Position numbers and translations under genes: made by a program | Shown here: positions 141-50,633 of the stretch, in pieces | Layout of the letters: each line of letters starts with the position of its first letter | Numbering within the stretch: position 1 is the first letter of the stretch | DNA from: a phage | Sequence record: NC_102605.1 | Direction: 5' to 3' (one strand) | Length of the DNA stretch: 50,633 bases | The notes under the pieces: generated by a model | Told to the model about the DNA's origin: nothing | Databases searched by the model: none | What the model saw: only the letters and a program-made list of their open reading frames with translations

Positions 141-574
141 TTTTTCTGTTGTTCTTATGTATACAATCAGAATATTGTTCTGTTTAGACGCCTTTTTGTG
201 TTTATTGCCTTTGATTTCAATGTTTTGCAGCGCGTTTTCAAAAACTACGCCGATTTCGGAACATACCCATATATATACATATACCCTGGAGCATACACAT
301 AACCATATAAAGTTAGAAAATATACGTGGGGTATCCCTATATATAGAGAACAAGCTAAACAAATAGAAACTTTTATAGATATATAAATAAAATTATCTTA
401 CTTTTTAGTATGTTATATGGTGATTCATTGTTGTTTTCTGTTTCGCTTTTTTACGGAAGGTAAACCCGTGAACATCGTGGAACGTTTTAGACAACGCGCA
501 AGACAGGGTGTGATGTTTTGCGGAAAAGTTTTCACGAGATCGGCAATGTGCAATCATTTCTACTCTCTCGCTAC

Positions 575-624
575 TCAAATCTAATCAAATCTAATCAAAT
601 CACATCACATCAACTCACACATCA
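575..624. repeat. Five tandem 10-bp units (TCAAATCTAA x2, TCAAATCACA, TCACATCAAC, TCACACATCA)
   Basis: Direct repeats with helical periodicity in a non-coding region. Confidence 0.7.
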
Positions 625-632
625 ATCATCAA

Positions 633-670
633 CGTGATCATATTGTGATCGCATAACGTGATCGTGAATC
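633..670. repeat. Clustered GTGATC / GTGAATC direct repeats (4 copies)
   Basis: cgtgatc, tgtgatc, cgtgatc, gtgaatc spaced 7-13 bp apart. Confidence 0.6.
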
Positions 671-699
671 CGTTCGATACAGGAAACGATGTGTTCATT

Positions 700-727
700 A
701 GACCAAACGGTCTAGACCAATCGGTCT
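700..727. promoter_or_regulatory. Two abutting 14-bp palindromes AGACC-N4-GGTCT; the junction forms a third palindrome GGTCTAGACC
   Basis: agaccaaacggtct followed by agaccaatcggtct, immediately upstream of the first dyad-motif cassette. Confidence 0.65.
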
Positions 728-734
728 ATCGCAT

Positions 735-756
735 GAATAGCACTTTTTGTTAAAAC
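735..756 (+). promoter_or_regulatory. Dyad-motif cassette (aatagcactttttgttaaaa), upstream of gene 812
   Basis: Motif, then tatgat about 22 bp after TTGTTA, then leader tcatcgaaacgaa, RBS and ATG. Confidence 0.6.
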
Positions 757-4345: not shown

Positions 4346-4454
4346 AAAAATAGCGGCCTGTTTAGCGTCGTGTCGCGATTTCAGGCCGTAGCCAATACAG
4401 TTGCGACACCTACAAACAAAACGCCTTACAAGGTCATACAGAAAGGATTTAAAC

Positions 4455-5150
4455 ATGCTTATTTTCTCACTATTTGATGGTTCTGGTTATGCTGCGTTGC
4501 CGTGGGCTGAACGTGGTCACAAAGTGCTGTGCTTTAATTTCGACGGTGCTGATCATGGTGATTACCAATCAGTGCGCGTGACTCATCCCAACATCGTTTA
4601 TTTGAATGAGTGGATCGGATTATCATTCCAGCATAACGCAATGATGCGCGTCTTTGGCACTCCAGATTTTATTATTGCATTCCCTCCATGCACTGATTTA
4701 GCTGTTAGCGGATCGCGTCACTTTGCCGCAAAGCGTGAACGTGATCCAGACTTCCAGAAAAAGGCGGTTGAAACGGCAAAGATTGCTGCCAATATTGCGG
4801 ATCGGTTTAACGTTCCATACATGATTGAGAATCCTGTTAGTGTTCTGTCGTCAATGTGGCGGCAACCTGATTTTATCTTTCATCCTTGCGCGTTTGGAGG
4901 TCTGTTGCCGGAAGATGATAAACATCCTCACTTTCCTGAAATCATTCCCGCTCGCGATGCGTACACCAAAAAAACTTGTCTTTGGACGGGTAACGGCTTT
5001 GTAATGCCGGATACAAACGCAGTATTGCCAACAGGGAACAACAATCCAGGCTGGCAAAAGCTCGGCGGCAAGTCTAAGCGAACAAAGCTGATCCGCTCAC
5101 TCACTCCGCGCGGCTTTGCGCTTGCTGTATGCATGGCAAATCAGAAATAG
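4455..5150 (+). CDS. DNA cytosine-5 methyltransferase-like protein, short, no obvious target-recognition domain (231 aa)
   Basis: Motif I-like FDGSG, PC motif FPPCTDLAVSG and ENV-like IENPV in canonical order; ATG after AAAGGA. Confidence 0.4.
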   Translation: MLIFSLFDGSGYAALPWAERGHKVLCFNFDGADHGDYQSVRVTHPNIVYLNEWIGLSFQHNAMMRVFGTPDFIIAFPPCTDLAVSGSRHFAAKRERDPDFQKKAVETAKIAANIADRFNVPYMIENPVSVLSSMWRQPDFIFHPCAFGGLLPEDDKHPHFPEIIPARDAYTKKTCLWTGNGFVMPDTNAVLPTGNNNPGWQKLGGKSKRTKLIRSLTPRGFALAVCMANQK

Positions 5151-5845: not shown

Positions 5846-5897
5846 GGCTGTAGAATGTTGCCGTTATAATTAGCGGCAACAAGAAGGAGATTTTTAG

Positions 5898-9228: not shown

Positions 9229-10344
9229 TTATGCAATCATTTCAGGGTAGAACATGAAGCGCCCTATCTCGCCATATTCCTTATCATAGATAATTACCGC
9301 CGCTCTACGGCGTGAACGCCAACCGCCACGCGCCGCATAAGCATCTTTAGCCGCCATAGTGCTATGAACCTCAACAATGCCCAGGCTCGTTTCTGTGACT
9401 GTCTGATGATGCCAATGCCCCACATGCGCATACATTGAATTGGAGTTTCCGAAATCTTCCCGCCAATCCGCTGCACACATCATTAAAAGCGTTTCTGGCT
9501 TGCGTACAGTGTGACCATGATGATAAGCAAGGAACGTTTTTCCATATTGCGTGTGATGCACTACACGCGGAGAAACATCAACATTAACGCGTGGTTCATC
9601 TTCATACGCCGCCGCCATTGCAGCACGTAGCCAGATCATTCCTGATTGGTCGTGATTACCCTCAATGATCTGGATCTCAACTTCTTTATGCTTTTCAAGC
9701 ATACGGCTTACTGCTCTACGCGTGGCACGAATGGCAACATAAACCAGTTTTGCATAACGTGAATCCTGATCCAATACGTGACCGCTTGCAGGTGTGACGG
9801 CTTCTAATCCGTCGCTGTGAATCATATCACCACCAATCAGCAATACGGCCTTTTCGCTATTCGGCGCTTTATCAACTGCATAATCGAAAAACTCATTCAT
9901 TACGTTTTCCGCTGTTGCCGTGTCGTAATTCTCACCGCTTTCATGCTTATGAGCCATTGCGCCAATATGGATATCAAAGATCGGATATAACGCCAGCGTT
10001 TGCGAGTAATCAGTAATTTTTTCCGGTTGCGGCTTGATGCGCGGCACTTCTTCCGAAAATGCAGCCATAGCCGCTTGCATGATTGCCTCTAATTGCTCTT
10101 TGTCTTTGTGCGTCTTAATCCAGGTTAGTTTAGTGTTACCATTCTTATCAACTAACTTTGACTCGCCAATTACAGCAAAGCCAGGCGATCCGATTGTTGA
10201 TATTTCCCCACGTTTAGCCAATTTGCTGTGACGGTGCTCAACCTGTCGCAAGCTCATTCCGTACTTTTCCGCAATCTCACGCAGTTTTAAACCTGCTGCC
10301 CTTTCTGCAATAAGTTGTTCGTCCGTAATTTTTGCCGCACTCAT
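9229..10344 (-). CDS. HTH-domain protein fused to calcineurin-like metallophosphoesterase (371 aa)
   Basis: N-terminal HTH-like region; phosphoesterase motifs DIHIG, GGDMIHSD, GNHD, HHGH, GHWHH. Confidence 0.7.
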   Translation of the reverse strand: MSAAKITDEQLIAERAAGLKLREIAEKYGMSLRQVEHRHSKLAKRGEISTIGSPGFAVIGESKLVDKNGNTKLTWIKTHKDKEQLEAIMQAAMAAFSEEVPRIKPQPEKITDYSQTLALYPIFDIHIGAMAHKHESGENYDTATAENVMNEFFDYAVDKAPNSEKAVLLIGGDMIHSDGLEAVTPASGHVLDQDSRYAKLVYVAIRATRRAVSRMLEKHKEVEIQIIEGNHDQSGMIWLRAAMAAAYEDEPRVNVDVSPRVVHHTQYGKTFLAYHHGHTVRKPETLLMMCAADWREDFGNSNSMYAHVGHWHHQTVTETSLGIVEVHSTMAAKDAYAARGGWRSRRRAAVIIYDKEYGEIGRFMFYPEMIA

Positions 10345-14727: not shown

Positions 14728-15336
14728 ATGAGCGAAATCAAAATTGCCGCCTCAACTGGCGAAATAGACAAACGCACAATCAATGGTAACAACGGCGTAA
14801 GACGTGGTAAAGATCGCAAACGTCGCGCACCTGTTAGCGGTTATCTTGTATTAAAGGAAGAAGTAAGAGCCGGATTAAAAGCGCGGCTTGATGAAGTTGT
14901 CAACGCTTACGGCGGTTGCGCTGCCCTGGCGCGTGAAATTGGAGTTAACCTTAAAACAGTATGGGGATGGAAAGAGCGCGGCATGATTTCAACTAAAGGC
15001 GCTGAACTGATCCAGAAAGATTACCGCCGCAAAGGTTTTAACGGTTTCCGCGCTTCATATTGCCGTCCAGATATCAAGTTTGATAATAACGGCAAGCCAT
15101 TAGAGAATCGTTGCAGCAACAGAAAGCTGATGCGATTTGTAACCAAAGAGGAAGCGGAAGCAAGAGGATTTGTGCGGCCTTACGATCCGTTACGGTCTAT
15201 GAGTCCAGAAGAACGCGAGAAAGAGAAAGCGCGGCGCAAGGCTGAACGCGACAAGGCGAAAGAAGAACAGCGCAAAGCAAAGGAGGCCAATCAGAAGAAA
15301 CGCGTTGTGATTTCCGTCGATAGCACTGATTGCTAA
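14728..15336 (+). CDS. Cro/YdaS-like HTH DNA-binding protein with Lys/Arg/Glu-rich C-terminal tail (202 aa)
   Basis: HTH signature GGCAALAREIGVNLKTVWGWKERGMIS; AGGTGA RBS. Confidence 0.55.
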   Translation: MSEIKIAASTGEIDKRTINGNNGVRRGKDRKRRAPVSGYLVLKEEVRAGLKARLDEVVNAYGGCAALAREIGVNLKTVWGWKERGMISTKGAELIQKDYRRKGFNGFRASYCRPDIKFDNNGKPLENRCSNRKLMRFVTKEEAEARGFVRPYDPLRSMSPEEREKEKARRKAERDKAKEEQRKAKEANQKKRVVISVDSTDC

Positions 15337-35655: not shown

Positions 35656-35675
35656 TATAGCATTTTTTGTTAAAC
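35656..35675 (+). promoter_or_regulatory. Orphan dyad motif in plus orientation inside the minus-strand late operon
   Basis: atagcattttttgttaaa with no plus-strand gene downstream; a hairpin with tattatg loop lies between it and the capsid RBS. Confidence 0.4.
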
Positions 35676-39800: not shown

Positions 39801-41381
39801 TTAACGCTTCGCTAATCCAGCTAAACGCTTCATTCTATCAACAGCATTATCAGCAAGGTTAAGCTCAATATTAACCGCATCAAAAAGGTTATCCATAATA
39901 TCATCATGAGGATGGCTATCATCATAAGTGAATGCAGCCGCCTCTGCCAGAAATTCAGCAAGCATGTGATGCGATTCAGGCAATACAACATAACCATTCT
40001 TGATCACTGGTTGTGCGTCCATGCATCGCGTTACTTTGTCTTTATCGCGTTGCACTGGCGTAATTTCTATCGGAAATGCTTTGCGGCAATTCTGGATCAA
40101 ACCTGTGCCGCTCGCTTTATCTTCCACGTAAATTTTACGCAAGTTTCCGCATTCTTTGTTACGTTTCCAGCACTGTTTAACAAACGCTTTAAACTGCGTT
40201 TCTAACATTGGCGCTTCCCATTTGCCGCGCACACCGTCAATAAAATAGATGCGGCCTTTGAACATGCCCCAATAACATAAAACGCTGTAGTCGTTTAGCT
40301 CACCTTCTTTCTGAGCGGTATCAGCCGTAATAAACGTATAATCAAAGCGATCCGGTTTTGGCATCGTTGATTTTTCTCCTGTTCCGTAATACTGGAACCA
40401 TCCAACGTTAATTGCGTTGCCGCCAAGAGCAATTGGCTCTTGCTGGTACTGAGAAAGGAACGTGTATAAATCCGCATCGCGTAGCGCTTTCAGGTCATGA
40501 ATGCTTTCCTTGCTAGGCCAAAAAGAATAATACTTAACGCCATCAATAACGATGTATTCAGACGAAAGAACATCCTTTTCAAAGTGCGGTTGCAACCAAT
40601 CAGGAAGCGATTTCCCGTATTCCTCCGTAACCATCGCCGGAATTGATATCTGATCAAATTCAATACCCATTCCGCCATTCATCAGAAACCAGGTCATATC
40701 CTGCGCGTGTAGACGCTGCTGAATAACGATAATCGGCGTTTCTGAATGTGCGCGACGTGATCGAATGGTGTTCTTTGCGATCATTTGACCGCGCTCACGC
40801 TTCACCTTCGAAAACATATCATCTGGCTTTTCTGGATCGTCAAGCGTTACGCAACCGGAATAAACACCAGGCGTGATGTAACCGCCACGGCTACCAGTAA
40901 TCTGACCGCCCATTGATTTACTAATCATTTCCAGGCGAACTTTGCCAGCGTCATTAAGGATCTGAAATTCATCATCCTTGCTTGTACCAGTTTTTGCGGG
41001 GTAAAGCTCTTGCCATTCTCGCGAGTTAACCAGATCGCGCACACGCTTGCTGTTACGTTTAACCAGCGTATCAGCAAACGAAATATTAAGATTTCGCACC
41101 TTGTTCAATTTCAAATATGAATAAGGCGGAAAGTGGATCGAAAGCAATTCTGTTTTACCTGAACCTGGCGTTACGTTAAAAATGGTATCTTTGCGCACAC
41201 CTTCAATAATTTCATCAATTGCCCTTGCAATATAAAGGTGATGCCAGTTAGGAATCCATTTTTCGCCCTGCTGGATCGGAAACCAGATTTTAACGAAAGT
41301 ATCAAAATCGTGTGTACTTAATTCCTTAATAGCCAGCTTTTCAAGTTTTGTTAAATCTTCCCAAATCAACATAGCATTCAC
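39801..41381 (-). CDS. terL: Terminase large subunit
   Basis: Walker A TPGSGKT, ATPase plus RNaseH-like nuclease architecture, 526 aa. Confidence 0.85.
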   Translation of the reverse strand: MNAMLIWEDLTKLEKLAIKELSTHDFDTFVKIWFPIQQGEKWIPNWHHLYIARAIDEIIEGVRKDTIFNVTPGSGKTELLSIHFPPYSYLKLNKVRNLNISFADTLVKRNSKRVRDLVNSREWQELYPAKTGTSKDDEFQILNDAGKVRLEMISKSMGGQITGSRGGYITPGVYSGCVTLDDPEKPDDMFSKVKRERGQMIAKNTIRSRRAHSETPIIVIQQRLHAQDMTWFLMNGGMGIEFDQISIPAMVTEEYGKSLPDWLQPHFEKDVLSSEYIVIDGVKYYSFWPSKESIHDLKALRDADLYTFLSQYQQEPIALGGNAINVGWFQYYGTGEKSTMPKPDRFDYTFITADTAQKEGELNDYSVLCYWGMFKGRIYFIDGVRGKWEAPMLETQFKAFVKQCWKRNKECGNLRKIYVEDKASGTGLIQNCRKAFPIEITPVQRDKDKVTRCMDAQPVIKNGYVVLPESHHMLAEFLAEAAAFTYDDSHPHDDIMDNLFDAVNIELNLADNAVDRMKRLAGLAKR

Positions 41382-41383
41382 CT

Positions 41384-41908
41384 TTAAATCTTGCTTAGGA
41401 CGCTTGCGACTGCGTTTTTCATCGCTTCTTCTGTATTGTCTTGCTCTTTGGCGTTAGCGCTAATATTGAACGTGTCGCCTTTATCAATACCAAGCTCTTT
41501 TGCGATCATGGTGCTGTTAATCATTCCGTTTGCCGCTAACTGGTATTTTTGTTCTTTGATCACCGATTCTGCAAACTCAATAACAACATCATAGCCTGGT
41601 TTAAGTTTCCACTTTGCTAGTGCTGTGCCGGAAAAACCGCAAAACAGCTTTAACCCTTCCCATGTAAAAATACGCGGCTTGTGAATTGTGTCCTGATACA
41701 CTCGCCCCTGAAATGATGCCGTTTCACCTGCTTTAATAGCGTTTAGCTCCGCCCATTCAAAATACTGAACAATCAGATTCATGACCTGTTCCGGCGTTAG
41801 CGTTGCGCGTTTATCAATCTCACTACCTACCAGATCGGAATATCGCTTATTCCATAACTTTTTAAAGTTTAGACTTTCCGCCGCTGGCGCTTCTGTTTTT
41901 TTAGCCAT
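41384..41908 (-). CDS. terS: Terminase small subunit (putative)
   Basis: About 174 aa immediately upstream of terL; AGGAGG RBS. Confidence 0.55.
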   Translation of the reverse strand: MAKKTEAPAAESLNFKKLWNKRYSDLVGSEIDKRATLTPEQVMNLIVQYFEWAELNAIKAGETASFQGRVYQDTIHKPRIFTWEGLKLFCGFSGTALAKWKLKPGYDVVIEFAESVIKEQKYQLAANGMINSTMIAKELGIDKGDTFNISANAKEQDNTEEAMKNAVASVLSKI

Positions 41909-50121: not shown

Positions 50122-50595
50122 TTATTCATCCTCATTGTTGACAAAGTTGATTTTCACAAGTGCATGAAGCTCTTGCATTACTTTTGCTACGGTTGCGTAT
50201 TCTTCCGGCGCATAGTTTGCCAGGTTTGGCGATAGCGTCATAAAGCGCTCTGCTGCCTTGTTCACTGCCTGGCGCTTGTGCCGTTCAACGTCAGCCTTGC
50301 TATAAACCGTTTTACGTTTCTCATGAGTGAGTGTGATCTTGAATACTTCCATGCCGAAAAGGTTACTTTCGTCATCGTCGCACATTGTCTTTTTGATCTT
50401 GATAGTGCCAACCATTTTTACTTCCGGCACTCGTGACATAGTGGTGCGCACGTATGAAGCCGGATTATCAGATGATTTCTTTCCGGCTAATTCAGTAGCC
50501 AGGTAGCCAGTCGGGATCACGATTTCGGTTTTCTCACCACTGGCGAGCGCCTTTGCTGCCTCGCGTAGTTTTTCGGTAAAGCTCATGTTTTCCAT
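50122..50595 (-). CDS. Hypothetical protein (~157 aa), first gene of the leftward array driven by the 105-140 promoter
   Basis: Track 50122..50628; ATG after AGGAGA RBS (MENMSF...); 5' end duplicated at 1-77. Confidence 0.55.
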   Translation of the reverse strand: MENMSFTEKLREAAKALASGEKTEIVIPTGYLATELAGKKSSDNPASYVRTTMSRVPEVKMVGTIKIKKTMCDDDESNLFGMEVFKITLTHEKRKTVYSKADVERHKRQAVNKAAERFMTLSPNLANYAPEEYATVAKVMQELHALVKINFVNNEDE

Positions 50596-50633
50596 ATGGT
50601 TTCTCCTGATTGGTTTTGATGTGTGCATTATGC
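50519..50633. repeat. Second copy of the terminal direct repeat (identical to 1-115)
   Basis: Exact identity with 1-115. Confidence 0.9.

Follow-up and report, generated by a model that had tools for sequence, protein, structure and literature searches.

The T1-like phages (Drexlerviridae) are very common; collections for phage therapy make use of them, and in the laboratory they are notorious as contaminants and as generalized transducers. Among headful packaging sites, the pac of P22 is one asymmetric 22-bp site within gene 3 (terS); that of SPP1 (pacL/pacC/pacR) adjoins its terS gene and consists of short repeated boxes about one helical turn apart, bound by a small-terminase oligomer flanking the cut; and that of P1 is regulated by Dam and has clusters of TGATC(A/G) hexamers on both sides of the cut. 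A literature search for sequence-level pac data on Drexlerviridae returned the TLS paper alone (PMC11447400). In that study pac was mapped by restriction digests: HindIII gave a submolar pac fragment of ~5,882 bp, EcoRV gave a fragment of ~2.7 kb, and bands of 5 and 4 kb were attributed to later headfuls. The authors picked AGATTT as the final pac base site for its resemblance to the P22 pac, and this hexamer is the only sequence that they name as pac; they also state that no iteron-like repeats occur anywhere in the genome, which is contradicted by the TLS sequence itself. So far, the placement of pac in T1-like phages has relied only on mapping by gels and on a guess of six bases.

The window, that is, the whole stretch of 50,633 nucleotides analysed here, is a complete Tlsvirus genome (T1/TLS family, Drexlerviridae, Tempevirinae). 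Its first 3 kb were 98.5% identical to Henu4_2 and 96.9% identical to UTK0007, with lower values for TLS, Stevie and others. Positions 1-115 are duplicated exactly at 50519-50633, indicating a circular assembly of 50,518 unique bp; this 115-nt end duplication is an assembly overlap, and the genome is circularly permuted. A leftward gene seemingly truncated at position 1 has its intact copy at 50122-50586. The repeats considered here sit in a 743-bp non-coding gap, whose left boundary is the start, at 68, of a leftward gene homologous to TLS gp01 (DUF7174) and whose right boundary is the ATG, at 812, of a rightward gene. The original prediction had located them between divergent promoters, which is roughly right only: the gap separates divergent genes (68 and 812), a sigma-70-like promoter (TTGACT-17-CATAAT, minus strand, 109-137) precedes the first leftward gene and corresponds to TLS P01 (TLS Supplementary Table S1), and a weak rightward promoter-like site is found at 364-393. 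To the left of the array, at a distance of 150-200 bp, an AT-rich block (260-420; 84% A+T over 351-400) differs among the Tlsvirus genomes and is not conserved. A TTATGG(T/A)GATT motif at 412-430, on the right edge of this block, is common to Tlsvirus and Webervirus (L027 488-505; L021 1-20) and corresponds to the exact first bases of six Institut Pasteur Webervirus records with termini obtained by PhageTerm; it may represent the true pac cut or, alternatively, a rightward -10 region. The open reading frames that run over the array and its left flank (417-584, 518-637 and, on the minus strand, 405-578) were considered as genes and discarded, as they contain stop codons in many relatives.

A tandem array with periods of 10 and 5 bp was found on the plus strand at 575-624. 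The five tandem 10-bp units that had been proposed form a real array, composed of two exact units, a close one and two that are degenerate: TCAAATCTAA is exact at 575-584 and at 585-594, the third unit (TCAAATCACA) has two mismatches, and the fourth and fifth (TCACATCAAC and TCACACATCA) deviate further. The same stretch can alternatively be read as nine TCNNN pentamers in a row, and TRF reported both a period of 10 with 3.1 copies (571-601) and a period of 5 with 8.6 copies (575-617). Self-identity reached the top value of all 50-nt windows of the genome at lag 5 (35/50; mean 12.5, sd 3.2) as well as at lag 10 (34/50; mean 12.9, sd 3.3); matches to the array 10-mer at one mismatch were not rare genome-wide. 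The array is embedded in a strand-asymmetric block on the plus strand (551-633), the most extended G-poor stretch of the genome, with one G in 83 nt and ~33% C, which includes the longest G-free run of the genome (571-633, 63 nt). The top strand of this block has the pentamer AATCA five times and is free of TGATT from 551 to 633; five AATCA within 90 bp represent the top cluster of the genome, since at most three were found together elsewhere. In its C-rich sense, the array has 24 C and one G in 73 nt, with UC each 5 nt, nine times. Rfam gave no match to an RNA element at the array, and no unusual RNA folding was predicted on either strand (fold z-scores of -1.5 and -1.0). Searches of the region and gap for DnaA boxes (TTWTNCACA) gave zero, and the full IHF consensus (WATCAANNNNTTR) was absent from them. 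By analogy, the boxes spaced by a helical turn may be likened to those of SPP1, although the small-terminase family and the sequences are unrelated.

Relatives were fetched singly from GenBank phage records, because a scan of IMG/VR with a conserved flank word gave only two loci, and an alignment of 17 Tlsvirus genomes was obtained. Conservation in relatives had been proposed as a check on the repeats, and the array was indeed kept in 17/17 genomes. Two blocks, both on the plus strand, hardly varied: a near-invariant core, CTACTCAAATCTAATCAAATC (571-591; 1/21 variable columns), and an invariant block, CTCACACATCAATCATCA (614-631; 0/18 variable columns), as against about 50% variable columns in their flanks. 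Of the two exact TCAAATCTAA units (575-594), the core covers the first in full and the second for the most part, and it contains the reverse complement of AGATTT, the pac named by the TLS authors. The middle units (592-613) vary, yet they hold their register and the absence of G; the 39 nt that hold the GATC triad described below occur as two haplotypes, with flanks TGTGATCGC vs AACGATCAC. The left edge of the conserved block is marked by GATCGGCAA (538-546, plus strand), a 9-mer shared with Webervirus mtp19, and ATCGGCAA was mostly retained across the 17-genome alignment. No indels were detected between 526 and 632 in the 17 genomes, so that the length of the array is fixed; this absence, odd for a slippage-prone repeat, suggests a constraint on spacing.

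The array, present in all 17 Tlsvirus genomes, has a looser form in T1, Webervirus and Motto. With blastn, only the 21-nt intergenic repeat unit described below aligned beyond the genus. Counts of AATCA, which beyond the genus cover T1, Webervirus mtp19 and SegesCirculi, and the Tempevirinae phage Motto, gave four to eight copies on the same strand in the 200 bp preceding the first rightward 21-nt repeat, against 0.62 expected. TGATT was scarce on the AATCA strand of T1, mtp19, SegesCirculi and Motto, which thus have the same strand bias; in T1 the AATCA pentamer cluster at the junction merely shares first rank within its genome. The AGACC palindromes and the GATC triad described below were not common to T1, Webervirus and Motto (GATC was found weakly in T1), and other dyads occupy the equivalent spot in T1 and Webervirus (TATTCCA...TGGAATA; CCGAATCGG).

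Two public records deserve a comment. OR786094 ("Streptococcus phage MBBL140") is a Tlsvirus genome with the same pac region and a small terminase 97.9% identical to that of the window; its assignment to Streptococcus agalactiae as host is probably wrong, or the sample was contaminated. Salmonella phage 36 (NC_029071), a RefSeq Tlsvirus record of 41 kb with many split genes and with annotation names drawn from unrelated Gram-positive phages, looks like a low-quality assembly; it was considered as a foreign genome with a Tlsvirus-like small terminase, in which to see if array and terS move together, and was set aside when it proved to be a fragmentary Tlsvirus.

In TLS, the terminase makes its first cut in the concatemer within the block described here, and packaging runs leftward, in the orientation of the window, through the left early arm toward terS and terL, for a few successive headfuls (PMC11447400). 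The TLS record begins with AGATTT and has its first HindIII site at 5876 and its first EcoRV site at 2733, which match the published fragment sizes; position 1 of the record therefore represents the mapped pac end. This position aligns to 613/614 of the window, inside the array, and the TLS sequence in the window orientation reads ...AATCACAAAATCT|CACACATCAATCATCA..., the leftward packaging in the window being the plus direction of the TLS record. Mapping on gels resolves roughly +/-100-150 bp, so that a region rather than a single base is located. TLS shares with the window the orthologous gap, the array, the GATC triad, the palindromes, the 21-nt repeat and a pac end in the array, and differs in its middle repeat units, which are AATCAAATCAATTTCAATCACAAAATCT.

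The T1 record (NC_005833), in which 1-2800 are annotated as a terminal repeat, starts at GCAAC|AATCACATC. This start motif matches the window at 598, position 1 of T1 aligns to ~597/598, and the T1 junction and the window share words of 10-12 nt. As in the window, the T1 site lies between divergent early arms, with packaging toward terS, a gp3-type small terminase, AATCACATC(AAC) motifs, a G-poor strand and two or three GATC. T1 differs from the window by having a pair of GCAACAATCACATC repeats at a distance of 30 bp, a GTTGCATGGTGTGCAAC palindrome and an additional 21-nt repeat on the far side, and by lacking the AGACC palindromes. The T1 gap (L019/L023 121-135, 395-425) also contains CGATTA twice by the 21-nt repeat and CGATTAACA three times upstream of the ST77 gene, with an ATATA-rich block between them.

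Record breakpoints were also considered as a proxy for physical ends and were rejected, being scattered and contradictory. In this comparison TLS, U136B and MBBL140 broke at 616/617, and GS71/156/166, whose termini are described as PhageTerm-validated, at 557/558; YSP2 and KKP 3830 broke at 525, in the opposite orientation, LL5 at ~450 and Sazh at ~440. The six Webervirus records, from a laboratory using PhageTerm, all begin where the AT-rich block ends on its right (equivalent to ~419 of the window); they read rightward, in the opposite direction, from a point ~130-190 bp left of the array.

The small terminase gene (terS; 41384-41908, minus strand) belongs to the P22 gp3 family (Pfam PF16677 GP3_package, 1.7e-10; PDB 3p9a, P22 gp3, 6.4e-14), with a match to P22 gp3 that spans most of the protein, and its start is probably residue 22 of the open reading frame. 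It is accompanied by the large terminase gene (terL; 39801-41381, minus strand; Pfam Terminase_6C, 9.2e-15). The terS gene is located 9.3 kb from the array, to the left, which is the direction of packaging, and the same layout is found in T1 and TLS; the small terminase is 97.9% identical to that of TLS. The locus resembles the P22 system in its homologous small terminase and in headful, unidirectional packaging that is co-directional with the late genes, whereas the site itself is a non-coding repeat array 9.3 kb from terS and the P22 core is not enriched: a search for likeness to the P22 pac (AAGATTTATCTG, up to three mismatches) gave 62 matches against 66.6 expected, the array contributing one match with three mismatches. 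The P22 family likeness is in the protein, not in the DNA site. In the Tlsvirus set, no co-variation was found between the terS alleles (~85% and at least 94% identical) and the array haplotypes.

A triad of GATC sites follows the array on the plus strand (633-670), with GATC at 636, 647 and 660 in the contexts TGATCA, TGATCG and TGATCG. Four GTGATC-type repeats had been announced for these positions; three are exact (634, 645 and 658), and the fourth is GTGAATC. Three GATC within 40 bp occur at one other site in the genome, at 9634, and this second trio (9634-9673) lies within a minus-strand open reading frame (9229-10344). The GATC cores of the triad were kept in 16/17 Tlsvirus genomes while their flanks changed, with 1/12 variable columns in GATC vs 16/27 in the neighbouring positions (Fisher p = 0.0045, a value uncorrected for shared ancestry). 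The triad probably consists of Dam methylation sites. A DNA methyltransferase gene is located at 4401-5150 (phrog_757), and the DNA of TLS is GATC-methylated (PMC11447400). On the opposite side of the array there is a single GATC, at 538, which was lost in four relatives, and the TGATC(A/G) hexamers (635, 646 and 659) are on one side only, not on two sides as in P1. A TGATC(A/G) cluster beside the cut and phage-methylated GATC recall the P1 system, and by analogy methylation might have a role here; the differences are the single conserved cluster of three and a terminase unrelated to PacA/PacB.

Further to the right, two abutting 14-bp palindromes of the form AGACC-N4-GGTCT occupy 700-727 (AGACCAAACGGTCT at 700-713 and AGACCAATCGGTCT at 714-727, both exact), and their junction, GGTCTAGACC, is itself a perfect palindrome, as the original prediction had described. 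When up to one mismatch was allowed, AGACC-N4-GGTCT was found only at these two places genome-wide (0.35 expected; at least two in 3/100 shuffles). The palindromes end 9 bp before a 21-nt repeat (737-755), so that their dyad symmetry adjoins a transcription unit, and the placement of the repeats directly upstream of the first dyad cassette was correct. They were present in 15/17 Tlsvirus genomes, CF1 and ElisaCorrea having an unrelated stretch of the same length instead. The three elements, which had been presented as one combination, do not behave as a unit, the array being found in 17/17 genomes and the GATC triad in Tlsvirus, while the palindromes are missing from two of the genomes. The small terminase of CF1, a genome without the palindromes, is 99% identical to that of the window, and each small-terminase allele was found both with and without palindromes, which makes it very unlikely that the palindromes are the target of the small terminase. 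They are a separable element, probably an operator; the operator suggested earlier is reasonable for the palindromes, and for them only. An HTH-type regulator gene is present in the genome (14728-15336), and no link between it and the palindromes was found. The 3' end of this putative regulator gene, immediately followed by a 21-nt repeat and the primase gene, contains the longest T-poor run of the genome (15205-15290, 86 nt with a single T). The palindromes are also spanned by an open reading frame of 31 codons (658-753) that terminates inside the 21-nt repeat. It is uninterrupted in the 15 palindrome-bearing relatives, probably as a by-product of nucleotide conservation, and lacks a convincing ribosome-binding site.

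The 21-nt repeat at 737-755 (plus strand; ATAGCAC...TAAAA) is the first rightward copy, a homologue of TLS DR18 located 75 nt before the ATG at 812. The repeat (ATAGCACnnnTTGnTAAAA) had 21 copies in the window against 0.29 expected (e.g. at 737, 1247, 1896, 2800, 5147 and 49284), and the copies point along the flanking genes, with the exception of that at 35657. The directly read repeats are followed by a variable hairpin and then by a start codon ~75 nt on. TTGnTAAAA within the repeat resembles an extended -10 (TGnTATAAT), and the function of the repeat is an open question according to the TLS paper (PMC11447400). The invariant blocks of the array were conserved as strongly as this repeat. 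A small early protein (1970-2194) matched Pfam PF25180, "phage antiviral trigger protein Gp54" (2.3e-32).

Taken together, these results make it reasonably probable that ~538-670 is a pac region of the T1/TLS type, at which a headful phage initiates packaging. The original prediction had left origin, operator and pac side by side; of these, pac has outside experimental support, from the TLS mapping and the start of the T1 record. An iteron-type replication origin would have the repeats bind a phage initiator (e.g. the DUF3987 helicase or the primase), with melting at 260-420 and GATC acting as in oriC. The locus does offer at least three direct repeats on one strand, an adjoining GATC cluster and, 150-200 bp away on the left side, an AT-rich block (84% A+T over 351-400); helicases and a primase are among the genes of the phage, further tandem repeats exist in the T1 gap (CGATTAACA x3), and the cumulative GC skew has its minimum at this divergent gap. 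However, the skew flips wherever gene orientation flips and, because it tracks orientation at every switch, is uninformative on the origin; the AT-rich part is unconserved among the Tlsvirus genomes, the region has no DnaA boxes, units of 5-10 bp are shorter than classical iterons, the replication genes are 5-15 kb distant, and the sole experimental mapping at the locus is that of pac. Nothing specific supports an origin at the repeats, and we consider it unlikely that this is what they are.

Transcriptional control is about equally doubtful. The G-free, C-rich stretch could serve as a rut site, loading Rho onto a rightward leader RNA, and gate the right early arm together with the palindromes as operator. 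A C-rich and G-poor composition (one G and 24 C in 73 nt, the longest G-free run of the genome, UC per 5 nt nine times) and the lack of a predicted stable RNA structure (fold z-score of -1.5) are as expected of such a site, and the weak promoter-like site at 364-393, the palindromes 9 bp before the first 21-nt repeat and the HTH-type regulator encoded at 14728-15336 fit the same scheme. Yet no convincing promoter reads into the array, the one sigma-70 promoter that the TLS authors list in the gap points leftward (TLS Supplementary Table S1), and neither invariant blocks nor a fixed length are required of a rut site; as for the operator, a palindrome with no further copies in the genome gives no sign of a regulon, and two relatives do without it. 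Pac was rated well above both the origin and the Rho site because the only experimental data on the locus concern packaging. That the array is a functionless microsatellite with chance palindromes seems highly improbable: replication slippage can create short-period repeats, and matches to the 10-mer with one mismatch are common enough genome-wide, but the length is constant in 17 genomes, the blocks are as conserved as the 21-nt repeat, and the strand-biased motif array recurs in other genera.

If the pac reading holds, the G-free, one-stranded AATCA/TCAAATCTAA array, together with the blocks at 571-591 and 614-631, would be the binding site of the ring-shaped small terminase of P22-gp3 type, in which the spacing of 5 and 10 bp would put the repeated terminase contacts on one face of the helix, and the fixed length of the array would mirror the geometry of these contacts. 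The GATC triad would be methylated by the phage or the host Dam and may tune the use or the cleavage of the site. The palindromes, outside terminase recognition, would most likely bind a dimeric regulator acting on the first rightward unit with a 21-nt repeat. An extended version, a composite pac of a hitherto undescribed kind in which the P22-type terminase reads the array, the Dam triad gates cleavage as in P1 and the hub might double as an origin, appears improbable; if it were true, the initiation of packaging would be tied to DNA replication or to methylation state.

The locus is known in kind, since it is the orthologue of the mapped pac region of TLS and T1. What is new is the fixed-length array, the invariant blocks, the conserved GATC triad and the dispensable palindromes, an architecture that was previously undescribed. 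The comparison yields a concrete candidate, with two invariant blocks in an array of fixed length, three conserved Dam sites flanking it and a palindrome module that stands apart. It would help to fix the start coordinates of hundreds of conflicting database records, to design pac plasmids or transduction tools, and to ask how a P22-type small terminase recognises a site distant from its own gene.
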